Source: Dehalococcoidia bacterium
Lineage (GTDB): Bacteria; Chloroflexota; Dehalococcoidia; SM23-28-2; RBG-16-64-32
NCBI GenBank assembly: GCA_963665775.2
Contig: CAXXTF010000002.1
Span: 1,344,001 to 1,408,000 of the forward strand
Length of the DNA stretch: 64,000 nt
Reading direction: 5' to 3'
Position numbers and translations under genes: made by a program. Positions 227-60,843 of the stretch are shown here, piece by piece. A model generated the notes under the pieces. The model saw nothing but the letters and a program-made list of their open reading frames with translations. It was not told the origin of the DNA and made no database searches. The first letter of the stretch is position 1. Each line of letters opens with the position of its first letter.

Positions 227-910
227 TTACACCCCCCGCTCGACCCGCGCCAGCGCCTCCTGCAGGCGCACCATATTGTCGGCCACAGACGCACGGTCGT
301 TGAACACGGCCGAGGCCGCCACCAGCACGTTGGCCCCCGCCGCCGAGCAGCGGGGCGCGACCTCCGGGGTCACCCCCCCGTCCACCTCGATCTCGGCCCC
401 CAGGCCCCCCTCATCGATGAGCTGTCGCAGGCGTCGCACCTTCTCCAGCGCCCCCTCGATGAACCGCTGGCCGGACCAGCCGGGGTTCACGCTCATCACC
501 ATCACCTGGTCCACCTCCGGCAGGATCCCCTCCAAGGCGCCGACCGGCGTCCCCGGGTTCAGACAGATCCCCGCCCGCTTGCCGCGGGCCCGCACCTCCT
601 GAGCGATGCGGTGGGGGTGAACGGTCGCTTCCACGTGCACGTTGATGATGTCGCCACCGGCGTCCATGAACGCCCCCATGTGGCGCTCTGGCTCCACCAC
701 CATCAGGTGGATGTCCAGGGTCAGCGAGGTGACCCGCCGCACCGCCTCCACGACGGGCGTGCCCATGGAGATGACGGGTACGAACCGCCCGTCCATCACA
801 TCGATGTGGATGTACGCCGCCCCCGCGGCCTCTGCCTCGCGCACCTGCTCCCCCAGCCGCCCGAAGTCCGCCGAGAGGATGGAGGGGGCGAGCTTAACGC
901 CGTTCGTCAT
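227..910 (-). CDS. rpe: Ribulose-phosphate 3-epimerase
   Basis: LAPSILSADF, HIDVMDG, DIHLMV, MSVNPG, EVDGG motifs; start trimmed to MTNGVKL, overlapping argH stop (ATGA). Confidence 0.95.
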   Translation of the reverse strand: MTNGVKLAPSILSADFGRLGEQVREAEAAGAAYIHIDVMDGRFVPVISMGTPVVEAVRRVTSLTLDIHLMVVEPERHMGAFMDAGGDIINVHVEATVHPHRIAQEVRARGKRAGICLNPGTPVGALEGILPEVDQVMVMSVNPGWSGQRFIEGALEKVRRLRQLIDEGGLGAEIEVDGGVTPEVAPRCSAAGANVLVAASAVFNDRASVADNMVRLQEALARVERGV

Positions 911-2292
911 TGCGCTGTCTCCAGCCGCTGTCGGGCCCGCTTGAGGGCCGCCGCCACCTGCCTCGATGACGTGCCGCCGGGCGCGTCCCGGGCCTCGATG
1001 GCCGACCACACGTCCAGCCGCAGCACGTCCTCCTCGAACAGGGGCGAGAAACCTCGGTACTCCTCCAGAGTCAGCTCGTTCAGCGCCTTGCCTTCAGACT
1101 CAGCCTTCCGCACCAGCTCAGCCACCGCCTGGTGCGCCTCCCGGAAGGGCACCCCTTTGCGGACCAGGTAATCTGCCACGTCGGTCGCCACGGTATAGGA
1201 GCCAGCGGCAGCAGCCTCTGCCCTGGCGGCGTTCACGCGCAGCGCCGGCAACAGCGCCGCCAGCACCTCCAGGCTCGGAAGCAGCGTATCCACCGTGTCG
1301 AACAGCGGCTCCTTATCCTCCTGCAGGTCGCGATTGTAGGCCAGGGGCAGCCCCTTGAGCGTCGTCAGGATCGCCATCAGGTTTCCGTAAACACGGCCGG
1401 TGCGGCCGCGGGCCAGCTCGGCCACGTCCGGGTTCCGCTTCTGAGGCATGATGCTCGATCCGGTGGCGAACTCCCTCGGCAGCTCGATGAATCCGAACTC
1501 GCCGCTCGACCACAAGACGATCTCCTCCGCCAGCCGCGAGAGGTGCATCATCGTGATCGCCGCCGCCGCCTGGAACTCCACCACGAAGTCGCGGTCGGCC
1601 ACGGCGTCCACGCTGTTCTCGGCGATGCGCGAGAACCCCAGTTCCCGCGCCACGAACTCGCGATCGATCGGGTATGGCACGCCGGCCAGGGCACCTGAGC
1701 CAAGGGGCAGCTCATCGGCTCGGCCACGGCAGTCGGCGAACCGCCCGGCGTCCCTCTCCAGCATCTGGAAGTAGGCCAGCAGGTGATGGGCCAGCAGCAG
1801 GGGCTGTGCCCGCTGCAAGTGGGTGTAGCCGGGCACTACCGTCTCCTGGCTGACCTCCGCCAGCTTCAGCAGGGCCGCCAGCAGCCCCGTGAGCCCCGCT
1901 ATCGCACCGTCACAGGCCTCCATGACGAACAGACGCACATCCGTGGCCACCTGGTCGTTGCGGGAGCGCGCTGTAGGCAGCCGGCCGGCCGCCTCGCCGA
2001 TCTTCTCGCGCAGGCGCGCCTCGATGTTCAGATGGATGTCCTCCAGCTCCTGGAGGAAGGAAAATTCGCCCCGCTCGATCTCCTGGCCTATCTCCTCCAA
2101 ACCTCGCTCGATGGCTTCAGCATCGGCGGCAGGGATGATCCCCTGCCGGGCGAGCATGCGGGCGTGCGCTATGGAGCCGGCGATGTCGTGCCGGTACAGC
2201 CGACGGTCAAATGCGACGGACGCCGTGTAGGCCAGGGCCAGCCGGTTCAGGCCGCTGGCGGTAGGGCTTTCGACAGGGTTACGTTCGGACAT
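907..2292 (-). CDS. argH: Argininosuccinate lyase
   Basis: SRNDQ, PGYTHLQRAQP, GSSIMPQKRNPD, YNRDLQEDKE; start trimmed to MSERNP downstream of TATAAT. Confidence 0.96.
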   Translation of the reverse strand: MSERNPVESPTASGLNRLALAYTASVAFDRRLYRHDIAGSIAHARMLARQGIIPAADAEAIERGLEEIGQEIERGEFSFLQELEDIHLNIEARLREKIGEAAGRLPTARSRNDQVATDVRLFVMEACDGAIAGLTGLLAALLKLAEVSQETVVPGYTHLQRAQPLLLAHHLLAYFQMLERDAGRFADCRGRADELPLGSGALAGVPYPIDREFVARELGFSRIAENSVDAVADRDFVVEFQAAAAITMMHLSRLAEEIVLWSSGEFGFIELPREFATGSSIMPQKRNPDVAELARGRTGRVYGNLMAILTTLKGLPLAYNRDLQEDKEPLFDTVDTLLPSLEVLAALLPALRVNAARAEAAAAGSYTVATDVADYLVRKGVPFREAHQAVAELVRKAESEGKALNELTLEEYRGFSPLFEEDVLRLDVWSAIEARDAPGGTSSRQVAAALKRARQRLETAQ

Positions 2293-2353
2293 TGCGGGCT
2301 CATTATACGCCACGACGCCGCACGGGCCTTATACGAAGCCTTGCCGCCAGCAC

Positions 2354-3130
2354 CTAGCCAAAGATGGGCAGGCCCTTCAGATCGCTAAGCGTTTCGATGA
2401 CGTAGTCGGGAACGACGGACGCCGGCGGCTCCGGCCTGTCCTCCGTCTCCCGCGCGTCTTCCCTGGGCGCGGGAGACCGCCACACGGCGGTCATCCGCAG
2501 CGCCTGCGCCCCCTCCACGTCGCCCCGCAGGCTGTCACCCACCATGACCGCCGCCTCCGGCTCGATCCCCATATGGTCGAGGGCGTGCTGGAAGATGCGG
2601 GGATGCGGCTTCAGGTACCCCACCTGACAGGACATGGCAACGACTTCGAACAGCTCCGCCAGCCCCAACTCCCGCATCTCCTGCTGGAAGCGCAGTCCAT
2701 CCCAACCCCGGTTCGTCACCGAACCCAGCCGGTAGCCCCTCTCCTTGAGCCAGCGCAGGGTCTCCAGGACATCCGGGAAGAGCGTTCGCCCCACGAAGGC
2801 GCCTTCCAGGTTCCAGGCCTCCCATAGCTCCTCCGACTGCTCCGGCGTCAGCGCCAAGCCGTGCCCAGCGGAGACGCGGCGGCAAACGTCCGGATAGCCG
2901 GGGTCCCGGCAGTCGCCGTGAAAGGCCTCTCCCGTTGCCTCCTCCGTGGCCGCCCGGATATCGCGAGCCAGGAAGAAGCGCTCCGGCGTCACCTCGAACC
3001 CCCAACGCCTCAGGAGACCGAAGATGCGCCGCCGCGTCTCCGCCGCCACCACATCCTGAGGCGGCCGGTCCGGGAAATGCCACAACGTGTTGCCCAGGTC
3101 GAAGAGGACAGCAATGATCCGAGCGGTCAT
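2354..3130 (-). CDS. HAD-superfamily hydrolase
   Basis: FDLGNTL (motif I variant), VTN, KPHPRIF, MVGDSLRGDVEGA. Confidence 0.88.
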   Translation of the reverse strand: MTARIIAVLFDLGNTLWHFPDRPPQDVVAAETRRRIFGLLRRWGFEVTPERFFLARDIRAATEEATGEAFHGDCRDPGYPDVCRRVSAGHGLALTPEQSEELWEAWNLEGAFVGRTLFPDVLETLRWLKERGYRLGSVTNRGWDGLRFQQEMRELGLAELFEVVAMSCQVGYLKPHPRIFQHALDHMGIEPEAAVMVGDSLRGDVEGAQALRMTAVWRSPAPREDARETEDRPEPPASVVPDYVIETLSDLKGLPIFG

Positions 3131-3306: not shown

Positions 3307-4515
3307 TCACTTCTCTTCCTCCTCCAGCATCTGCGCCCTGGCTTGCACGCGCACCGGCAGTCCCCAGATGTGTATGAAGCCGGGCGCCGCCGTCCGGTCG
3401 AAGGCGTCCTCCTTATCGTACGTCGCCAGGGAGAAATCGTACAGGCTCCGGGGCGACTTCCGTCCCACCACCGTCGCGCTCCCCTTGTGTAGCCTCACCC
3501 GCACCAGCCCGCTGACGTGCCGCTGGCTGGACTGCACGTAGGCCGCCATGTCCTGATGATGCGCCGTGAACCACAGCCCGTTGTAGATCAGCTCCGCGTA
3601 TTCCTGGGCGATACGCGCCTTCAGCCGTATCTGATCCTTAGACAGCGTCAGCGCCTCCAGCCCCTCGTGGGCGGCCAGCAGGGTCACCGCCGCCGGCGCC
3701 TCGTATATCTCGCGCGACTTGATCCCCACCAGCCGGTCCTCCACCATGTCCACCCTTCCCACCCCGTGCTCGCCGGCCAGTTCGTTCAGCCCCTTCACCA
3801 GTGACACGGCATCGATCTCCCGACCGTCCAATGAGACCGGCAGCCCGCGCTCGAAGCCGATCTCCACGTAGGCCGGCTTCTCCGGCGCCTCCACCGGCGA
3901 CTTCGTCCAGGCGTAGATCTCGGCCGGCGGCTCCTGCCAGGGGTCCTCCAGCCGCCCGCACTCGATGCTGCGCCCCCACAGGTTCTCGTCGATGCTGTAC
4001 GGGCTCGCCTTCGTCACCGACACGGGGATGGCATGCTCCTGGGCATAGACGATCTCCCCCTCGCGATCCATATCCCATTCCCGCAGCGGCGCCACGATCT
4101 GTAGCTCCGGCGCCAGCGCCTGCACTGACACGTCCAAGCGCACCTGATCATTCCCCTTGCCGGTGCAGCCGTGGGCCACCGCCGTTGCCCCCTCCGCCTT
4201 CGCCGCCGCCACCATCTCCCGAGCGATGAGGGGCCGCGACAGGGCCGTGGCCAGAGGGTAGTGCCCTTCGTAGCGAGCCCCCGCCGCCAGGGCCGGGAAG
4301 GCGAAGTGCCGCAGGAACGTCTCCTGAGTGTCCTGCCACAGACACTTGGCCGCCCCCGCCGCCATCGCCCGCGAACGCAGCGCCTCCCGCTCCCGGTCCA
4401 TCCCGACGTCCACCGTAAGGGCGACAACGTCGTAGCCCCGCTCCTCCTTCAGCCAGCGGATGGCCACGGAGGTGTCGAGGCCGCCGGAATAGGCCAGCAC
4501 TATCTTCTCAGACAT
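3307..4515 (-). CDS. argG: Argininosuccinate synthase
   Basis: LAYSGGLDTS, HGCTGKGNDQVR, YSIDENLWG, GIKSREIYE. Confidence 0.97.
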   Translation of the reverse strand: MSEKIVLAYSGGLDTSVAIRWLKEERGYDVVALTVDVGMDREREALRSRAMAAGAAKCLWQDTQETFLRHFAFPALAAGARYEGHYPLATALSRPLIAREMVAAAKAEGATAVAHGCTGKGNDQVRLDVSVQALAPELQIVAPLREWDMDREGEIVYAQEHAIPVSVTKASPYSIDENLWGRSIECGRLEDPWQEPPAEIYAWTKSPVEAPEKPAYVEIGFERGLPVSLDGREIDAVSLVKGLNELAGEHGVGRVDMVEDRLVGIKSREIYEAPAAVTLLAAHEGLEALTLSKDQIRLKARIAQEYAELIYNGLWFTAHHQDMAAYVQSSQRHVSGLVRVRLHKGSATVVGRKSPRSLYDFSLATYDKEDAFDRTAAPGFIHIWGLPVRVQARAQMLEEEEK

Positions 4516-4524
4516 ATCTCACCC

Positions 4525-5727
4525 TCACTTCGATGCGTCAGCCTCGATGCCGGCCAGCACCCGGTCCAGGATCTCCACCGCCTGATCGATCTCGCCCTCG
4601 CTCACCGTCAGGGGCGGCATCAGCCGCAGGGCCGTGGGCTTCACGTTGTTGGCCAGCAACCCGCCCGCCAGGCAGAGACGCACCGCCTCCTCCGCCGCCT
4701 CGCGGCCCAGCTCGACGGCCCACAGCAGCCCCCTGCCCCGCACCTCCGTCACGATCGGATGCCGGTCCGCCAGCGAGTGCAGCCGTCGCTCCAGATGCTC
4801 GCCCTTGCGGGCCACCTGGGCCGAAAGATCATGCTCGATGACGTACTTCACGACCGCGTATCCGACCGCCGTGGCCAGCGGGTTACCGCCGAAGGTGGTG
4901 CCATGCTCCCCCACGCCCAGCGCGGAGCAGTGCTCCTTGACCAGGAAGGCGCCGATAGGGAAGCCGCCGCCTAGCCCCTTGGCCAACGCCATCACGTCCG
5001 GCTCTACCCCGTAGAGCTGGTGCGCGAACAGCTTCCCTGTGCGCCCGATCCCCGTCTGCACCTCGTCCAGCATCAGGAGGAGCCCCGCCTCGTCGCACCA
5101 GGCTCGGACCTGGCGCAGATAGCCGTCGGCGGGCACGTTGACGCCGCCCTCGCCCTGAATCGGCTCCAGGAGGACGGCCGCCGTCCTCTCCGTCGTCGCC
5201 TTCCTGATCGCCTCCGCATCGTTGAAGGGCACCCGCACGAACCCCTCGGGCAACGGCGTAAAAGGGGCCCGATACTTCTCCGTACTGCCGGCCGTCAGCG
5301 TAGCCAGCGTACGGCCGTGAAAGGAACCCTCCGCCACGATGATCTCGGAGGCGCCGTCGCGCTTCTCCTTCCCCCACTTGCGGGCCAGCTTGATGCAGCC
5401 CTCCACCGCCTCCGCGCCGCTATTGCAGAAGAACGCCTTATCCAGGCAGCTGTTCTCGCACAGGAGCTGGGCCAGCTTGAGCTGCGGGATCGTGTAGTAG
5501 ATGTTGGAGACCTGCATCAGCTCCCGCGCCTGCTCCGTCACCGCCTTCACCACCGCTGGATGGCTATGACCGAGGCTCACCACCGCGATTCCGGCCACAA
5601 AGTCCAGATATTCGCGGCCCGCGTCGTCCCAGACGCGGCTGCCCTCACCTCGCACCAGCGTCACCGGCAGCCGCTTACCGGTAGGGAGAAAGTAACGACT
5701 CTCCAGCTCGATCCAGTTCTCGCCCAT
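4525..5727 (-). CDS. argD: Acetylornithine aminotransferase
   Basis: FCNSGAEA, SFHGRT, EPIQGEGG, DEVQTGIGRTG, LAKGLGGG, GTTFGGNP; arg operon context. Confidence 0.93.
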   Translation of the reverse strand: MGENWIELESRYFLPTGKRLPVTLVRGEGSRVWDDAGREYLDFVAGIAVVSLGHSHPAVVKAVTEQARELMQVSNIYYTIPQLKLAQLLCENSCLDKAFFCNSGAEAVEGCIKLARKWGKEKRDGASEIIVAEGSFHGRTLATLTAGSTEKYRAPFTPLPEGFVRVPFNDAEAIRKATTERTAAVLLEPIQGEGGVNVPADGYLRQVRAWCDEAGLLLMLDEVQTGIGRTGKLFAHQLYGVEPDVMALAKGLGGGFPIGAFLVKEHCSALGVGEHGTTFGGNPLATAVGYAVVKYVIEHDLSAQVARKGEHLERRLHSLADRHPIVTEVRGRGLLWAVELGREAAEEAVRLCLAGGLLANNVKPTALRLMPPLTVSEGEIDQAVEILDRVLAGIEADASK

Positions 5728-5740
5728 CCTTACTCCCCCT

Positions 5741-6517
5741 TCATCCTACGATGGTCCCTGCCGGCTCGCCCTCCACAAGGGAGAGCAGGGCGTGCTCGTG
5801 GCGGCCATCGGCGATCACGCTGAGGCTCCCCGACCGGGCCGCCTGCAGACAGGCCTCCACCTTGGGGATCATGCCCCCCTCCACGACACCGGAATCGATA
5901 AGCCGGGCCGCTTCCTCGACCGAGAGGCGGGCAGCAGTCTGACCGTCGTCGGAGCGGACGCCTTCCACATCGGTCAGAAAGGCCAGCCAGCGCGCCCCCA
6001 GCGCCGCGGCCACGGCACCGGCCGCGGTGTCGGCGTTCGTGTTCAGAAGCTGATCCGTGGGCCGCTCCCCCTCCCACTGCGCGGCCACCGGCGCCACCAC
6101 CGGCACGTATCCGTCGTCCAGCAGCCGCAGGAGAGGACGGCTATCCACCATGTCCACATCCCCCACGAAACCCAGCCTCTCATCGCGAATGTGGGCCCGC
6201 AGCAGCCCGCCGTCCGCCCCCGAAAGGCCGACGGCGCGTCCCCCCAGGGCCGCCAGAGATGCCACCAGCGTCTTATTAACCAGCCCGGCCAGCACGGCCA
6301 CCACAACCTCCAGCGACTCGCCGTCCGTAACGCGCAGGCCCCGCTCGAACCGAGTAGGCACGTTATGTCTAGACAGCCACTCGCTGATGAGGGCGCCCCC
6401 TCCGTGCACCACCACCGGTCGCAGCCCTCGACGCTGGAGCGCCACCAGATCCTCCAGCGCCGTGTCGTGGCTGCCCAGGGTGGAGCCGCCTATCTTCACC
6501 ACCAGAATGTCAGACAT
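5741..6517 (-). CDS. argB: Acetylglutamate kinase
   Basis: VVKIGGS, VVHGGG, GLRVTD, NTNAD, GGMIPKV. Confidence 0.95.
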   Translation of the reverse strand: MSDILVVKIGGSTLGSHDTALEDLVALQRRGLRPVVVHGGGALISEWLSRHNVPTRFERGLRVTDGESLEVVVAVLAGLVNKTLVASLAALGGRAVGLSGADGGLLRAHIRDERLGFVGDVDMVDSRPLLRLLDDGYVPVVAPVAAQWEGERPTDQLLNTNADTAAGAVAAALGARWLAFLTDVEGVRSDDGQTAARLSVEEAARLIDSGVVEGGMIPKVEACLQAARSGSLSVIADGRHEHALLSLVEGEPAGTIVG

Positions 6518-6645
6518 GCCTTCCCATCCTGGCATCTCCTCCGCCGCACCCTCTGGGCTGCGGCATCAATTCGCATTTGCCTGACCCGGCCTTCAGGCTG
6601 GGGTGGTCGCACAAGAACCCGTGTCCCATCTGTGCCCTGCTATCG

Positions 6646-7866
6646 CTAAGTAGTGTAAAGACTGTTCAGGCGCACGTACTCCTCCGTGATGTCCGAGCCC
6701 CAAGCCGTGGCCTCCGCCTCCCCCAGCCCCAGGCCCACCCGGATGCGCACCTCGCGCGGCGCCAGGCAGTCCGCCGCCTGTGCCTTGTCGTAGGGTTGCG
6801 GCGACCCGTCCCGAAACAGGCACAGCTCGCCGCCGTCAGGGGTGCCCAGATACAGCGCCACGCTCTCCTCCCCCATCTCGGCGCCGCTGTTCCCGACCGC
6901 CGCCAGGATACGGCCCCAGTTGGGGTCGCGCCCGTACACCGCCGTCTTCACGGCCAGCGAGCGTACCACCTCCCGCGCCGCCTTACGGGCGTCCGCCAGC
7001 GAGCGAGCGCCACCCACCTTCGCCTCGATCACCTTAGTCGAACCCTCAGCATCGGCCACGATGGCCCCGGCCAGATAGGTGCAGACCTGGGCCAGCGCCG
7101 AGGCGAAGGCGTCCGACCGGAGCTGTCCCCGGTCGATAGCCTCACCGCCACCCTGACCGTTGGCCAGCACCACCACCATGTCGTTCGTGCTGGTATCGCT
7201 GTCCACATCGATCATGTTGAAGGAGGCCGCCACCGCCTCCCCGAGGGTCTCTGCCAGGAACGCCGAGGCCACTGGCGCGTCGGTCGTGATGAAGGAGAGC
7301 ATCGTGGCCATGTTGGGATGGATCATGCCCGCCCCCTTGACCACGCCGCCCACCGTATACGCTCCGAATCGCACCGCGACACGCTTGGGCCGCGTGTCCG
7401 TAGTCATGATGGCGCGGGCGAAGTCCAGGCCACCCGCCGCCGAGAGCTCTATCCGCTCGACGCCGCGACGGATGCGATCCATGGGGAGGTAGGGGAGGCC
7501 GATGATCCCGGTTGAGGCCACCACCACGTCGTACGGGTCGACGTTCAACTTACTTGCGGCCAGCGCTGCCATCTCCACCGCATCCTGCATCCCCTGCTGG
7601 CCGGTAGCGGCGTTGGCGCAGCCACTGTTGGCGATGACCGCCTGCCCGCGGCCGCCAGCCAGGTGCTTCTGGGTGATCAGCAGAGGCGCCGCCTTCAGCC
7701 GGTTACTGGTGTAGACCCCGGCGGCCGTACAGGGCGTCTCCGAATAGAGGAGGCCCAGATCGAGCCTCTCAGCGTCCGGCCGGATATCGACCCTGGCGGC
7801 TCCGGCCAGGAAGCCAGCGGGCGTCGTTACGTCGCCATCCGCTATCAGTTCCGTATCTTCGACCAT
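6646..7866 (-). CDS. argJ: Ornithine acetyltransferase / N-acetylglutamate synthase
   Basis: NSGCANA, ASTGIIG, KGAGMIHPNMATML, DSDTSTND, DPNWGR. Confidence 0.96.
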   Translation of the reverse strand: MVEDTELIADGDVTTPAGFLAGAARVDIRPDAERLDLGLLYSETPCTAAGVYTSNRLKAAPLLITQKHLAGGRGQAVIANSGCANAATGQQGMQDAVEMAALAASKLNVDPYDVVVASTGIIGLPYLPMDRIRRGVERIELSAAGGLDFARAIMTTDTRPKRVAVRFGAYTVGGVVKGAGMIHPNMATMLSFITTDAPVASAFLAETLGEAVAASFNMIDVDSDTSTNDMVVVLANGQGGGEAIDRGQLRSDAFASALAQVCTYLAGAIVADAEGSTKVIEAKVGGARSLADARKAAREVVRSLAVKTAVYGRDPNWGRILAAVGNSGAEMGEESVALYLGTPDGGELCLFRDGSPQPYDKAQAADCLAPREVRIRVGLGLGEAEATAWGSDITEEYVRLNSLYTT

Positions 7867-7903: not shown

Positions 7904-8956
7904 CTACGGGTAGACGGACGGGGCCTCCAGCCCCATGGTCTCCGGAAGGCCCAGCACCAGGTTCATATTCTGGATCGCCTGCCCAGCCGCCCCCTTCACC
8001 AGGTTATCGACGACGCTGACCACCACCAACCGCTCCGTGCGCGTATCCACTGTGGGATAGAGCAGGCACACGTTGCTGCCCTGCGTCTGCTTGGTGGAGG
8101 GCGGCCTGTCCACCACCCGCACGAACGGCTCCCCCTGATAGTAGTACCGGTACAGCTCCCGCACCGCCTCCTTGGCCGCCTCGCCTGCCGGCAGGCGGCC
8201 CTCCATCAGGGTCGCGTAGCAGGTGGAGAGGATGCCCCGCGTCATGGGGATCAGATGGGGCGTGAACGTCACCCGGGGCCACGACGGCTGTGACCCCGCC
8301 GAGAGCGGCCACATCCGCGCCAGCTCCTGGACGATCTCCGGCAGGTGCCGGTGCCCGTCCAGGCCGTAGGCGGAGACGCTCTCGTCCGCCTCGGCAAAGT
8401 GATAGGTCAGGTCCAGGGTACGCCCGGCGCCAGATATGCCCGATTTGGAGTCCACAATGATCTCCGTGCCGACGATCCCCGCCTTCACCGCCGGCGCCAG
8501 ACCCAGGAGGGCGCTCTCCGGATAGCAGCCCGGGTTAGCGATGAGCCTGGAGGCGCGCACCGCCTCCCGGTTCAGCTCCGTCAGGCCGTAGGTCGCCCGG
8601 AGCAGGAGGTCCGGCGCTGGATGCTCCGCGCCGTACCAGGCGGCGTACTCCTGGGGATCGCGCAGGCGAAAATCGGCGCTCATATCGACGATCGGCAGGC
8701 CGGCGCGGGCCAACGGCGCCACCGCCTCAGCGCTGGCCACGTGAGGCAGGGCCGAGAAGACGAAGTCCACCTCGCCCATCTCCGGCTCCACCACCAGATC
8801 GTAGCAGGCCAGGTGGGGAAAGACCTCGGCCAGGGTCTTACCGGCGGCGCTGCGACCGCTGACGCTGGTCAATCGGGCCTCCGGGTGGGTGTACAGCAGC
8901 CGGGCCAGCTCGGCCCCGGCGTAACCTGTCACATTAATGATCCCTACCCTGACCAT
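7904..8956 (-). CDS. argC: N-acetyl-gamma-glutamyl-phosphate reductase
   Basis: TGYAG, SADFRL, ANPGCY, SGISGAG, DNLVKGAAGQAIQNMN; RBS GGAGGAG at 8967-8961. Confidence 0.96.
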   Translation of the reverse strand: MVRVGIINVTGYAGAELARLLYTHPEARLTSVSGRSAAGKTLAEVFPHLACYDLVVEPEMGEVDFVFSALPHVASAEAVAPLARAGLPIVDMSADFRLRDPQEYAAWYGAEHPAPDLLLRATYGLTELNREAVRASRLIANPGCYPESALLGLAPAVKAGIVGTEIIVDSKSGISGAGRTLDLTYHFAEADESVSAYGLDGHRHLPEIVQELARMWPLSAGSQPSWPRVTFTPHLIPMTRGILSTCYATLMEGRLPAGEAAKEAVRELYRYYYQGEPFVRVVDRPPSTKQTQGSNVCLLYPTVDTRTERLVVVSVVDNLVKGAAGQAIQNMNLVLGLPETMGLEAPSVYP

Positions 8957-8967
8957 GGCGCTCCTCC

Positions 8968-9006
8968 AAAAAGTAAACCGCCCCACCACTGTTCAGCGGT
9001 GGGGCG
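8968..9006 (-). terminator. Intrinsic terminator (attenuator) directly upstream of the argC RBS
   Basis: Minus strand CGCCCCACCGCTG-AA-CAGTGGTGGGGCG followed by GTTTACTTTTT. Confidence 0.8.
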
Positions 9007-9041
9007 TCTTCGTCTCCCTGTGTGCTTCTGCCGCTGGGCGT

Positions 9042-9128
9042 CTACCCGCTGGCACACCAAAGCCCACCGCTCCTCGAGCCAAGTCGAGGTCGTCGCTGGG
9101 CGATCCTGACGCCTGCCTGCGTTGCCAT
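9042..9128 (-). CDS. Putative arg-operon leader peptide (28 aa)
   Basis: MATQAGVRIAQRRPRLGSRSGGLWCASG*; Arg codons AGG, CGA, CGA, CGA, AGG; lies between promoter and terminator. Confidence 0.68.
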   Translation of the reverse strand: MATQAGVRIAQRRPRLGSRSGGLWCASG

Positions 9129-9138
9129 GTCAGTGCCC

Positions 9139-9168
9139 ACGATAGCCAGCCACCCCTCGTGCTGTCAA
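9139..9168 (-). promoter_or_regulatory. Sigma70-type promoter of the arg leader/operon
   Basis: TTGACA (9168-9163), 18-nt spacer, TATCGT (9144-9139), 10 nt before the leader ATG. Confidence 0.7.
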
Positions 9169-9203
9169 GGCCTACCAACCTGCCTGGGGAGTAGCCCTCC
9201 CCT

Positions 9204-9293
9204 GGATTACTCGCTCCACTCAGAATGACAGCCGCACGGCCCGTCACCCTGAGCCCTTCGGCTACGCTCAGGATAAACTCCGTGAACGGTCTC
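9204..9293. repeat. Cluster of degenerate REP-like palindromes
   Basis: Minus strand TGTCATTCTGAGTGGAGCGAGTAATCC (9230-9204); plus strand GTCACCCTGAGC-CCTTCGGCTACGCTCAGGATAAAC, sharing CCTGAGC / CCTTCG..GCTCAGG words with the copies at 42955 and 46890. Confidence 0.6.
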
Positions 9294-9370
9294 TAATCCG
9301 GGAGGCGCCTCGGGTCGTGAGGCCGCGTCGCCGCCGGCGCCTACCGATACCTATCGCGGCCGATCCGGGG

Positions 9371-9399
9371 TTGCCGGCGGCGACGTTGGCCGCTAGTAT
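9371..9399 (+). promoter_or_regulatory. Promoter of TetR-men operon
   Basis: TTGCCG-17 nt-TAGTAT. Confidence 0.6.
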
Positions 9400-9401
9400 G
9401 G

Positions 9402-9427
9402 AAACCAACCGACGCGTCGGTTGGTTT
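9402..9427. promoter_or_regulatory. Putative TetR operator
   Basis: Perfect 26-bp palindrome AAACCAACCGACGCGTCGGTTGGTTT between -10 box and ATG. Confidence 0.75.
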
Positions 9428-9432
9428 TGAGC

Positions 9433-10056
9433 ATGACGACACAGCAACCTCGGGCCCAGGAACGGCGACATCGCATTCTGGACGCGGCCCTGCGCACCTT
9501 CTCCCGCAGAGGATATCGTGACACTAGCGTGGATGAGATCGCAGAGGGGTCCCGCACCTCCAAGGGCGGCGTCTACTTCCACTTCCCCAATAAGGAGGCG
9601 ATCTTCCTCGCCCTCCTCAACAGATCCACAGCCCACCTGTTGGAGAGGATCGAGACGGCGATGGCCGCCCAGGAGGACCCCATCGCCAAGGCCGACGCCG
9701 CCCTGCTCACCGTTCTCCGCACCTTCGCCAATCACCGCGCCCTCGCCCGCTTATTCATGCTGGAGGCCCTGGGGGCCGGCCGCGACTTTCACCAACGCAT
9801 GTCGGAGATCCGCAGCGAGTTCGCCGCAATCATCCAGAGGCAGCTGGACGACGCAGTCCGGCAGGGCATCCTCCAGCCTCTCGACACGGAGGTCGCCGGC
9901 CGCGCCTGGTTCGGGGCTCTGGCCGAGATCACAACGAACTGGGTCTTCTCCGGCCAGCCGGAACGACTGGAGGACGCCTTCACCGCCCTCAGGCCGCTCC
10001 TGATGCGAAGCGTGGGGCTCACCAGCAACTCTCATCTCGAGATTCGACAGCGATGA
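9433..10056 (+). CDS. TetR/AcrR family regulator
   Basis: ILDAALRTFSRRGYRDTSVDEIA...SKGGVYFHFPNKEAIF HTH. Confidence 0.93.
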   Translation: MTTQQPRAQERRHRILDAALRTFSRRGYRDTSVDEIAEGSRTSKGGVYFHFPNKEAIFLALLNRSTAHLLERIETAMAAQEDPIAKADAALLTVLRTFANHRALARLFMLEALGAGRDFHQRMSEIRSEFAAIIQRQLDDAVRQGILQPLDTEVAGRAWFGALAEITTNWVFSGQPERLEDAFTALRPLLMRSVGLTSNSHLEIRQR

Positions 10057-11471
10057 GCACGCCCGATCTGTACACGGCCCTGGCGGAGAGGCTGCGCCCC
10101 CTTATGGAGAGAGGCCTGAGCGAGGCCTCACGCCGCGGCGAGTCGATCCTCGTCAGCACGGCGGCGGCGATACCATCTAACGACCCGATACGCCTGTTCC
10201 AGCGAGCCGAGGCGCAGGAGCGGGCACTGTGGGAGCAGCCCAGCGAGGGGTTCTCCATGGTGGCCGTGGGCGCGGCGGCGCGGCTGACCGGGAGCGGAGG
10301 CAACCCGTTCCCGGATGTGACCGCCGCCTGGCGCCGTCTCACCTCGGACGCCCTGATAGAGTCCGGGGACGGCCTCCCCCTCGCCTTGCCTATCGGCCTG
10401 GGCGGCTTCGCCTTCGACCCCGTTCGCCCACGCGACCCCTGCTGGAAGGAGTTCTCGGACGCCCTCCTCATCGTTCCCCGGCTCCTTTTCGTCTCCCACC
10501 GCGGCTCCTCCTGGCTCAGCATCAGCCTCATGGCGACCCCCGGCGACGACGCCATCGCCGCCTCCGAGGGCGCCGTGGCCGAGCTCCGCCGCCTCCTATC
10601 CCACCGCGACACTGAAGAGAGGCGAAATCCATCCGCAGGCGACCCGACGCTGGAAGAGGAGGTCACGCCGCAAGCCTGGAGGGGTGCGGTAAGCCAGATC
10701 CTGCGGAACATCCACCAGGGCGATATGGAGAAGGCGGTGCTGGGTCGCAGGCTGCGCCTCCGCAGTGCGGCGCCGCTGGACCCCGGCCCGGTCCTGGACC
10801 GGCTCCGCCCCGCTTACAGCAGCTGCACTATCTTCGCCTTCACCCTCGGCGCCAGCACTTTCCTGGGAGCGACCCCCGAACGACTGATCCGGCTGCATGG
10901 GCAGAGCGTGCGCGCCGACTGCCTGGCCGGATCGACGGCCCGAGGGGCCAGCGAGCAGGAGGACCGATCGCTGGGGGCGGCGCTCCTGGCAGACGCCAAG
11001 GAGCGGCATGAGCACGCCCTGGTGGTCCGCGCCGCCCGCGACACGCTGGGGCCCCTCTGCTCGCAGCTCAGCCTGCCAGAGACGCCGGCCGTCCTGCGGG
11101 TGCCCACCGTCCAACACCTGCACACGCCCGTGGAGGGCCTGTTGCGTGGCCAGACCCACATCCTCGATCTGGTGGAACAGCTCCACCCCACGCCGGCCTC
11201 CGGCGGCCTCCCGCGCGAGGCTGCCCTGCCCCTCATCCGGGGGCACGAAGCCTTCGATCGGGGGTGGTACGCCGGCCCCGTGGGCTGGGTAGACGGGAGC
11301 GGCGGCGGCGAGTTCGTGGTCGCGATCCGATCCGCCCTGCTACACGAGCGTGAAGCCCTGCTCTACGCCGGCTGCGGCATCGTGGCCGGCTCCAACCCCG
11401 ACCACGAGTACCAGGAATCCTGCCTGAAGCTGCGAGCGATGCTATGGGCGCTGAACGGCAAGCGGACGTAG
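10053..11471 (+). CDS. menF: Isochorismate synthase
   Basis: KAVLGR, FLGATPERL, LAGS, KERHEH, QHLHT, LHPTPA, RGWYAG, AIRSA, YAGCGIV; men context. Confidence 0.9.
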   Translation: MSTPDLYTALAERLRPLMERGLSEASRRGESILVSTAAAIPSNDPIRLFQRAEAQERALWEQPSEGFSMVAVGAAARLTGSGGNPFPDVTAAWRRLTSDALIESGDGLPLALPIGLGGFAFDPVRPRDPCWKEFSDALLIVPRLLFVSHRGSSWLSISLMATPGDDAIAASEGAVAELRRLLSHRDTEERRNPSAGDPTLEEEVTPQAWRGAVSQILRNIHQGDMEKAVLGRRLRLRSAAPLDPGPVLDRLRPAYSSCTIFAFTLGASTFLGATPERLIRLHGQSVRADCLAGSTARGASEQEDRSLGAALLADAKERHEHALVVRAARDTLGPLCSQLSLPETPAVLRVPTVQHLHTPVEGLLRGQTHILDLVEQLHPTPASGGLPREAALPLIRGHEAFDRGWYAGPVGWVDGSGGGEFVVAIRSALLHEREALLYAGCGIVAGSNPDHEYQESCLKLRAMLWALNGKRT

Positions 11472-60766: not shown

Positions 60767-60843
60767 TGGCGCGCTCGGCGGGACTCGAACCCACGACCTC
60801 AGCCTCCGCAAGGCTGCGCTCTATCCAACTGAGCTACGAGCGC
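60767..60843 (-). tRNA. tRNA-Arg(GCG)
   Basis: GCGCTCGTAGCTCAGTTGGATAGAGCG-CAGCC-TTGCGGA-GGCTG-AGGTCGTGGGTTCGAGTCCCGCCGAGCGCGCCA. Confidence 0.95.

Follow-up and report, generated by a model that had tools for sequence, protein, structure and literature searches.

A candidate arginine-sensing leader-peptide attenuator preceding argC in an order of Dehalococcoidia

A stretch of 64,000 nucleotides from the genome of a Dehalococcoidia bacterium (GenBank assembly GCA_963665775.2, contig CAXXTF010000002.1, positions 1,344,001 to 1,408,000 of the forward strand; hereafter the window, with positions counted from its first letter) was analysed for the leader that precedes argC, the first of a series of arginine biosynthesis genes on the minus strand. 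The source genome comprises 2.35 Mb in two contigs, with 63% G+C, and is 91% complete. Among named ArgC sequences, the closest ones come from uncultured Dehalococcoidia (phylum Chloroflexota). We consider it probable, at roughly 0.8, that this leader is a ribosome-mediated transcription attenuator of the trp/his/leu type, which would sense arginine through a leader open reading frame (ORF) that is leaderless or nearly so. The reading draws on the anatomy of the leader, its conservation among related genomes, the coding signature of its ORF, the complementarities within its RNA and its codon bias, all of which were observed directly. An original prediction, made from the letters of the window alone, had proposed an arginine attenuator at this place, and this interpretation was supported by the recurrence of the leader in relatives, the in-frame arginine codons and the covarying antiterminator flanks, together with searches in which no T-box, riboswitch or ArgR was found. 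The mechanism would be classical leader-peptide attenuation, which is known; arginine biosynthesis as its target appears to be new. The term leader-peptide attenuator is used here for a class of elements that work alike, and not for a sequence family.

The leader consists of the following features, given in the order of transcription:

9163..9168, minus strand: -35 hexamer TTGACA; TTGAC is invariant in all 27 aligned leaders
9139..9144, minus strand: -10 hexamer TATCGT, after an 18-nt spacer; TAnnnT at a spacing of 17–18 nt in 27/27 relatives
9042..9128, minus strand: leader ORF of 28 codons plus TAG (9044-9042), peptide MATQAGVRIAQRRPRLGSRSGGLWCASG; ATG at 9128, 10 nt after the -10 box, without a Shine-Dalgarno sequence
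9084..9101, minus strand: region 1, 5' arm of the 1:2 (anti-antiterminator) hairpin, which holds the arginine cluster (minimum free energy (MFE) folds)
9084..9095, minus strand: arginine cluster CGA CGA CCT CGA (codons 12–15), the proposed stall site, conserved as R-(R/P)-x-R-(P)
9062..9077, minus strand: region 2, 3' arm of the 1:2 hairpin and 5' strand of the antiterminator, with the core AGCGGTGGG at 9071-9063
8995..9006, minus strand: region 3, 5' arm of the terminator, which pairs with region 2 in the antiterminator; complement CCCACCGCT at 9003-8995
8979..8990, minus strand: region 4, 3' arm of the terminator (hairpin folding)
8968..8977, minus strand: T tract of the terminator, TTTACTTTTT (terminator pattern scan)
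8961..8967, minus strand: argC ribosome-binding site GGAGGAG, abutting the T tract

The promoter TTGACA-18-TATCGT (9168-9139) and the 28-codon ORF beginning 10 nt after its -10 box were recovered base for base as originally described, and the promoter was the single sigma-70-like site in a consensus scan of positions 8000-10500 (0.3 expected). Alignment of argC upstream regions from relatives, which had been put forward as a check, was carried out on 30 loci fetched after argC had been found in 39 of 41 related genomes. At 27 of these loci the same succession was present: TTGACA, TAnnnT 17–18 nt later, a start codon, an arginine-rich upstream ORF, a G-run and a terminator before argC. Three loci (L020, L029 and L030) lack it. 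Sixteen further loci, from 15 more genomes and one named metagenome-assembled genome whose leader peptide is identical to that of one of the 15, all have the same layout.

The leader ORFs of the relatives are 21–44 codons long and hold 3–9 arginines each. Their start codon lies 6–10 nt past the -10 box in 27/27 leaders, and at exactly 9 nt in 21 of them, which leaves no space for a Shine-Dalgarno sequence. From the distance at which transcription usually starts after a -10 box, a 5' untranslated region of 0–3 nt would be expected here, and the leader mRNA is probably leaderless or near-leaderless, with a 5' untranslated region of up to about 3 nt. Genome-wide, long ORFs near promoter-like sites numbered 6 at a gap of 9 nt versus about 2 at most other gaps, an excess too small to establish leaderless genes as common in this genome.

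The arginine cluster carries further evidence for translation. A dense R(R/P)xR(P) cluster is present in every leader (27/27, and 16/16 of the further loci), and arginine makes up 22% of the leader peptide residues. The invariant CG pair within the cluster occupies codon positions 1–2 and is in frame with the start in 26/26 leaders. The distance from the start to this invariant arginine takes six values in these leaders (27, 30, 33, 36, 42 and 48 nt), each length change therefore being a multiple of three, and the third base of the codon varies (CGA in 16 leaders, CGC in 6, CGG in 2 and CGT in 2). Wobble variation that preserves arginine is, at the level of sequence, a signature of selection on a translated codon. 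The evolutionary coding signature is thus strong, and the leader ORF is likely to be translated.

The five arginine codons of the window ORF that had been listed in the original prediction are all present: AGG (codon 8), CGA at 9095-9093, 9092-9090 and 9086-9084, and AGG (codon 19). The two AGG codons lack conservation in the relatives, however, and only the CGA run, rather than the AGG codons, would form the sensing cluster. CGA accounts for 67 of the 100 arginine codons inside the clusters and for 5 of 54 elsewhere in the same ORFs; its share of the arginine codons is 6.1% in argC of the 27 leader-bearing loci and 9.8% in 291 long ORFs of the source genome, where CGC and CGG together reach 67%. 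The contrast of CGA with the dominant CGC and CGG was therefore correctly noticed from the start. A sensitive attenuator is expected to use rare codons read by a minor isoacceptor, as in the leu leader. A genome search for CGA-x-CGA-x-CGA was uninformative, its 617 sites being nearly all out-of-frame stretches within genes.

The anticodons of tRNA-Arg identified in the source genome with ARAGORN were CCT, CCG, TCT, TCG and GCG. No tRNA-Arg with anticodon ACG was found by the same program in this 91% complete genome, and TadA was not found there either, the sole cytidine-deaminase-fold gene being ribD. Where the ACG anticodon is missing, the wobble rules leave tRNA-Arg(UCG) as the only reader of CGA, and from the tRNA set and the missing TadA it follows that CGA would be decoded solely by this tRNA here. 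To read the CGN box in such an archaeal style, without ACG and TadA, is uncommon among bacteria. One member of the set, the GCG tRNA-Arg gene, lies inside the window (60767-60843, minus strand).

Three helices compete within the leader RNA. The hairpin CCTCGA/TCGAGG of the original prediction is present as described, 9089-9084 pairing with 9077-9072, but it is not a complete element: it is the tip of a longer 1:2 helix in which 9101-9084 pairs with 9077-9062. The exact complementarity that had been pointed out between AGCGGTGGG (9071-9063) and CCCACCGCT (9003-8995) in the 5' arm of the terminator holds over all 9 nt; the chance expectation of such a 9-mer is 1.33 over the whole window and both strands, which by derived arithmetic is about 1 in 1000 for a given single-strand stretch of 100 nt. 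The terminator stem (9006-8979) has 12 pairs, is GC-rich, is followed by GTTTACTTTTT and ends 12 nt before the argC start, so the predicted terminator with a U-tract ending at the argC ribosome-binding site (GGAGGAG, 8967-8961) was found where expected. In the window the 1:2 hairpin, the 2:3 duplex and the terminator hairpin have energies of -23.1, -20.8 and -25.6 kcal/mol, respectively, and the fold of the 186-nt leader has z = -3.7, with 0/200 shuffles equally stable. As GGAGGAG directly follows the T tract, there is no space for a second promoter before argC; in 18/27 loci no more than 14 nt separate the terminator (12-nt tail counted) from the argC start, and argC would therefore be expressed only by read-through.

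The same pairings recur in the relatives. All 27 have a G-run at the place of region 2, and a CCCCACC...GGTGGGG hairpin with a T tract recurs in their leaders. Across 26 folded sequences, seven of the GCCCCACC/GGTGGGGC core pairs are invariant and one shows a single C-to-U change that still pairs, with the outermost G-C broken in 3/26. Since the 1:2 register differs among clades, the 1:2 and 2:3 helices were compared by the duplex energy of cognate versus non-cognate strands. Cognate 2:3 duplexes averaged -23.85 kcal/mol against -21.66 for non-cognate ones (1/5000 permutations as good) and cognate 1:2 duplexes -27.0 against -24.58 kcal/mol (0/5000), while 1:3 control duplexes showed no difference between cognate and non-cognate strands. 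On alignment A4, 74.6% of cells were paired in 2:3 compared with 42–57% in slid registers, a value that 0/500 shuffles reached. Both sides had changed in 21 cells, and the flanks of 2:3 carry compensatory changes and covary.

Known RNA families and the usual arginine regulator were searched for as well. Rfam cmscan of positions 8800-9500, at E up to 10, returned four chance-level matches and no leader, T-box or riboswitch family; His_leader, Leu_leader, Thr_leader, Trp_leader and similar families gave no match, nor did an arginine T-box even at this threshold. A T-box or riboswitch fold explaining the terminator, one of the finds that had been named as refuting the attenuator, did thus not appear. 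Among the chance-level matches were a human long non-coding RNA model and the Caulobacter small RNA model CC1840, the latter caused by the TetR-operator palindrome at 9402-9427. The suggested genome search for argR found none: the ArgR domains PF02863 and PF01316 had no match in the 91% complete source genome (ARG boxes were not searched for), and PF02863, the C-terminal domain, was detected in 0/41 genomes of the order, with 8/14 control genomes positive.

These results bear on an alternative in which a protein or ligand, either a factor responsive to arginine or the amino acid itself, controls the attenuator in the manner of PyrR, TRAP or a riboswitch, by binding CGAC/CCCGACC together with GGTGGGG and so selecting terminator or antiterminator, the ORF being incidental. 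The GCCCCACC and GGTGGGG cores are near-invariant while ArgC is only 63–81% identical across the order, which goes beyond the needs of pairing; the openness of the frame proves little and the equilibrium folds show no clean switch that depends on the ribosome, both points being discussed below. Against this, the start is fixed 6–10 nt from the -10 box in 27/27 leaders, the invariant arginine stays in frame over six distances with its third base passing through all four bases, and 22% of the peptide is arginine; no Rfam match was obtained, riboswitches and T-box included. The near-invariance of the cores also has a simpler cause, because each strand must pair with two partners. We regard control by a protein or ligand as very unlikely.

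How the attenuator would work can be laid out from the position of the cluster. The first cluster arginine lies 18–28 nt before region 2 in 27/27 leaders and the last one 9–18 nt. If the ribosome is taken to protect about 12 nt past the first base of its A site, a ribosome stalled at the first cluster codons would, in this model, cover region 1 and leave region 2 free. Leaders cut just before region 4 were folded with ribosome footprints as masks (27 leaders), and 2:3 pairing was obtained in 8/27 free RNAs, in 27/27 with the footprint at the first arginine and in 22/27 with the footprint at the middle arginine.

The transcription start, the translation of the ORF, the stalling, the termination and the response to arginine are all predicted from sequence, and the proposed course of events is as follows. 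Transcription would begin at the AUG at 9128 or a few bases before it, and a 70S ribosome would start on the 28-codon ORF before RNA polymerase has finished the leader. With plentiful arginine the ribosome would pass the CGA cluster and region 2; region 1 (9101-9084) would re-pair with region 2 (9077-9062) behind it, and the emerging region 3, left partnerless, would pair with region 4. The terminator (9006-8979 and T tract) would then end transcription 12 nt before argC. With charged tRNA-Arg scarce, namely the UCG isoacceptor as sole reader of CGA, the ribosome would stall with an early CGA in its A site and would cover region 1 but not region 2, which begins 18–28 nt downstream. The free region 2 would pair with region 3 as the antiterminator, the terminator would be blocked, and argCJBDG, probably through argH, would be transcribed.

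The original prediction had expressed a worry about the off state, the antiterminator strand lying well before the stop codon. The stop codon is indeed beyond region 2, and the off state must therefore rest on the 1:2 helix re-forming behind the ribosome; it is this helix, which would sequester the antiterminator strand, that answers the worry. Region 3 is made 47–81 nt later than the point at which 1:2 must re-form.

In another conceivable reading, a conserved nascent R-R-x-R-P...G-G peptide would itself be the sensor: at high free arginine it would arrest the ribosome on region 2 and thereby let the terminator form. Arrest peptides that sense a ligand are known for arginine, tryptophan and ornithine, examples being the fungal arginine attenuator peptide, TnaC and SpeFL; R(R/P)xRP with following Gly codons recurs in 43 leader peptides, and the logic would give repression at high arginine. 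The conserved residues are, however, exactly the ones on whose codons the pairing of regions 1 and 2 imposes constraints, while the N- and C-terminal parts and the stop vary freely, the stop lying 3–49 nt past region 2; arrest peptides keep the residues that adjoin the arrest site. At the level of the peptide the synonymous bias towards CGA would also be meaningless. An arrest peptide is extremely improbable in our view.

The distribution of the element was assessed with a covariance model (R1) built on the 27 leaders. Of 65 genomes belonging to the order, 52 gave one copy, and the source genome has exactly one credible copy, the argC leader. At each locus whose neighbouring gene was examined the element precedes argC, with at most one strong match per genome. 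All true matches in 151 sampled genomes of the class fall within this order, and 151 sampled genomes of the phylum gave no true match outside it. Two weak matches were rejected as false, one outside the order in the class sample (G109, at the 3' end of a permease gene) and one in the phylum sample (G209, inside an open reading frame). The element is an order-wide sequence family, which R1 connects to nothing outside the order. A scan of the source genome for a promoter, a leaderless short ORF and a terminator gave 5 matches, of which only the arg leader was credible. A promoter-proximal 13-codon ORF outside the window, MLRQAEMLLLLQY (C2:639374, minus strand), followed by a hairpin, was rejected as a leucine leader, because its surroundings are AT-rich and include an integrase-like gene; it probably belongs to a mobile element.

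Several loci depart from the common layout. In g22 (L029, L030) and g19 (L020), argC follows a plain TATACT-type promoter without an attenuator, and in L020 it seems to start at CATCATG, 9 nt after the TATACT-type hexamer, a position matching that of the leader ORFs. The terminator stands 60–109 nt upstream of argC in L021, L028 and L008, and L021 and L028 have a TATAGT-like hexamer between terminator and argC. This hexamer may act as a bypass promoter and mark a stage at which the element is being lost.

It could be asked whether the element is real but unresponsive to arginine, either as a constitutive partial terminator that does no more than fix how strongly the operon is expressed, or with the ORF serving as a small protein or an aid to ribosome loading. 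Eleven genomes of g22 and g19 manage without it, and the richness in arginine follows in part from a GC- and CG-rich sequence that pairs with the G-run. The linkage to argC at every examined locus, with one credible copy in the source genome, speaks against this, as do the arginine cluster 18–28 nt before region 2 in 27/27 leaders, the enrichment of the rare CGA inside the cluster only and the conservation of mutually exclusive helices; a constitutive terminator would need none of these four. We find an unresponsive element hardly likely. All three alternatives (a protein or ligand, an arrest peptide, an unresponsive element) are disfavoured because none explains an in-frame, wobble-varying, CGA-biased arginine cluster at fixed spacing.

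A number of results count against the arginine attenuator and have to be set beside the evidence above. With regard to the ORF, frame +2 is likewise open in 23/27 leaders, so that openness proves little and is weak evidence in DNA of 63% G+C. The last CGA of the cluster belongs to CCCGACC, which differs from the terminator arm CCCCACC by one mismatch; pairing of the RNA may select this codon and confound the CGA bias, the two pressures being inseparable here. With regard to distribution, R1 gave no match in genus g22 (0/10), in g19 (0/1) and in two incomplete genomes of the window's family, and given these genomes the element is dispensable. ArgR was also not found in those R1-negative genomes that were searched for it (6/13).

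The comparative evidence for the helices has its own weak points. The generic terminator pattern, found once in a 2.5-kb scan versus 0.8 in shuffles, is alone not significant. The permutation and shuffle counts given above use kin sequences and overstate the independent support. The helix cores (CCCCACC, GGTGGGG) are nearly unvarying and offer almost no covariation, and RNAalifold on the MAFFT alignment recovered the terminator core alone, without compensatory pairs. On the same alignment only 62% of the 1:2 cells are paired, because the register differs among clades.

The same holds for geometry and folding. Past region 2, the stop codon follows at a median distance of 20 nt (range 3–49 nt) and within 12 nt in only 4/27 leaders, and a ribosome terminating there leaves region 2 uncovered, in contrast to trpL. 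In the truncated RNA, 2:3 pairing was obtained in 13/27 leaders with the footprint at the last arginine and in 11/27 with the footprint at the stop codon, and a control footprint at initiation still gave 18/27. In MFE folds of the full leader the terminator core was kept in 26/27 free RNAs; it was kept in 23/27 under a mask at the first arginine and in 26/27 under one at the last (these masks were placed on codons picked by script, which are wrong in some loci), and in 26/27 under a mask at the stop codon. As the terminator persists under any mask at equilibrium, the decision of the switch must be kinetic, as in known attenuators; equilibrium folding is compatible with a switch without proving one.

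Beyond the attenuator as such, a bolder reading joins the findings on ArgR, on the probably leaderless start and on tRNA: arginine synthesis in this order would run without a repressor, the pioneer ribosome on a leaderless transcript would read the charging of a single minor isoacceptor, tRNA-Arg(UCG), and this would be the first arginine attenuator of the classical type. We put it forward tentatively, at somewhat less than even odds. As CGA would be private to tRNA-Arg(UCG), its concentration in the sensing cluster would follow from a reading based on this isoacceptor. If true, the leader would be an isoacceptor-specific, ArgR-independent sensor of arginine.

Textbooks present arginine biosynthesis as the standard case of control by a repressor (ArgR), and trp, his, leu, thr, phe and ilv as those of attenuation. 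In a lineage in which the search for ArgR came out negative, a conserved arginine attenuator would extend attenuation to a further amino acid and bring it to a poorly known uncultured group (Dehalococcoidia, Chloroflexota). It would also join three features: leaderless initiation, a sensing cluster of one rare codon read by one tRNA, and an off state reached by refolding behind the ribosome. For annotation the element offers a marker, one covariance model finding it in 52/65 genomes of the order. What limits the weight of the element is that its mechanism is a familiar one.

The genes that follow the leader on the same strand were assigned by Pfam search, in the order argC, argJ, argB, argD, argG, a HAD hydrolase gene and argH:

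7904..8956, minus strand: argC (N-acetyl-gamma-glutamyl-phosphate reductase), Pfam Semialdhyde_dh and Semialdhyde_dhC_1, with ATG at 8956
6646..7866, minus strand: argJ, Pfam ArgJ, E = 6e-136
5741..6535, minus strand: probable argB (acetylglutamate kinase), Pfam AA_kinase, named from context
4525..5727, minus strand: probable argD (acetylornithine aminotransferase), Pfam Aminotran_3, named from context
3307..4515, minus strand: argG (argininosuccinate synthase), Pfam Arginosuc_synth and Arginosuc_syn_C
2354..3130, minus strand: HAD-family hydrolase gene (HAD families of Pfam), between argG and argH
907..2313, minus strand: argH (argininosuccinate lyase), Pfam Lyase_1 and ASL_C2

Lying on the same strand past the HAD gene, argH may share the transcript of argCJBDG. 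A TetR-family gene diverges upstream of the arg promoter (ORF 9421-10056, plus strand, probable ATG at 9433) and is followed by the gene of a chorismate-binding enzyme (10053-11471). Just upstream of the probable ATG of the TetR-family gene lies a perfect 26-nt palindrome, AAACCAACCGACGCGTCGGTTGGTTT (9402-9427), which looks like the operator of the TetR-family protein itself. Between this gene and the arg promoter (about 9205-9275, minus strand) there are GC-rich inverted repeats, CCTGAGC...GCTCAGG at 9272-9248 and GTCATTCTGAGTGGAGCGAGTAATC at 9229-9205, and a repeat resembling them, GAGCGCAGCGAAGG, is found between terminator and argC in locus L028. Repeats of this type look like dispersed intergenic repeat elements.

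Among known systems, the arg leader can be compared with the enterobacterial leaders trpL, hisL, leuL, thrL, pheL and ilvL. It shares with them a short ORF in which codons for the regulated amino acid are clustered, four regions with 1:2, 2:3 and 3:4 helices in which the regulatory codons lie within region 1, and an intrinsic terminator just before the first biosynthetic gene. The leuL leader uses the rare codon CUA, and the Dehalococcoidia arg leader resembles it in its use of rare codons. It differs from the enterobacterial leaders in its amino acid, arginine, and has no relationship to them by sequence or Rfam. It also has no Shine-Dalgarno sequence, its start 6–10 nt past the -10 box being probably leaderless, and its ORF crosses region 2, with the stop usually some 20 nt further on, so that the off state would depend on 1:2 refolding.

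Arginine T-box leaders and ArgR are the known controls of bacterial arg genes. With the T-box the arg leader would share the pathway, the reading of tRNA-Arg charging and the choice between terminator and antiterminator; unlike the T-box and ArgR it would sense through the translating ribosome, and no T-box match (8800-9500) and no ArgR domain (source genome) were found. Seliverstov et al. (2005; PMC1262725), in the part of that study available, list T-boxes as the RNA regulators for arginine and saw no conserved RNA element upstream of the arginine operons of Actinobacteria, and the motifs of upstream ORFs listed in the accessible part of Brewer et al. (2021; PMC8632094) include none for arginine. 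Full-text literature searches found no leader-peptide attenuator for arginine biosynthesis.

According to the portion of Canestrari et al. available (10.1101/834739), the mycobacterial polycysteine leaderless short ORFs form the first cistron of a biosynthetic operon, and stalling on them remodels the downstream RNA, acting on a ribosome-binding site and not on a terminator. As far as that account goes, the arg leader resembles them in being a short ORF, probably also leaderless, that carries the codons of the regulated amino acid in a run, and unlike them has arginine instead of cysteine, a competing intrinsic terminator and a host in another phylum. In Salmonella, orf34 of speF is described in the available part of Ben-Zvi et al. 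(2019; PMC6386406) as an ORF of 34 codons with two arginine codons and a normal leader, at whose consecutive arginine codons the ribosome pauses at low arginine and so selects an alternative mRNA structure. It controls ornithine decarboxylase, i.e. polyamine synthesis, and is read out through RNase G sensitivity, Rho termination and unmasking of the ribosome-binding site (PMC6386406). On this partial description, both systems would reshape the mRNA by pausing at arginine codons, the arg leader differing in its target, arginine biosynthesis, and in its intrinsic terminator. By analogy, the enterobacterial leaders, the mycobacterial polycysteine ORFs and Salmonella speF orf34 would be the closest mechanistic relatives of the Dehalococcoidia arg leader.

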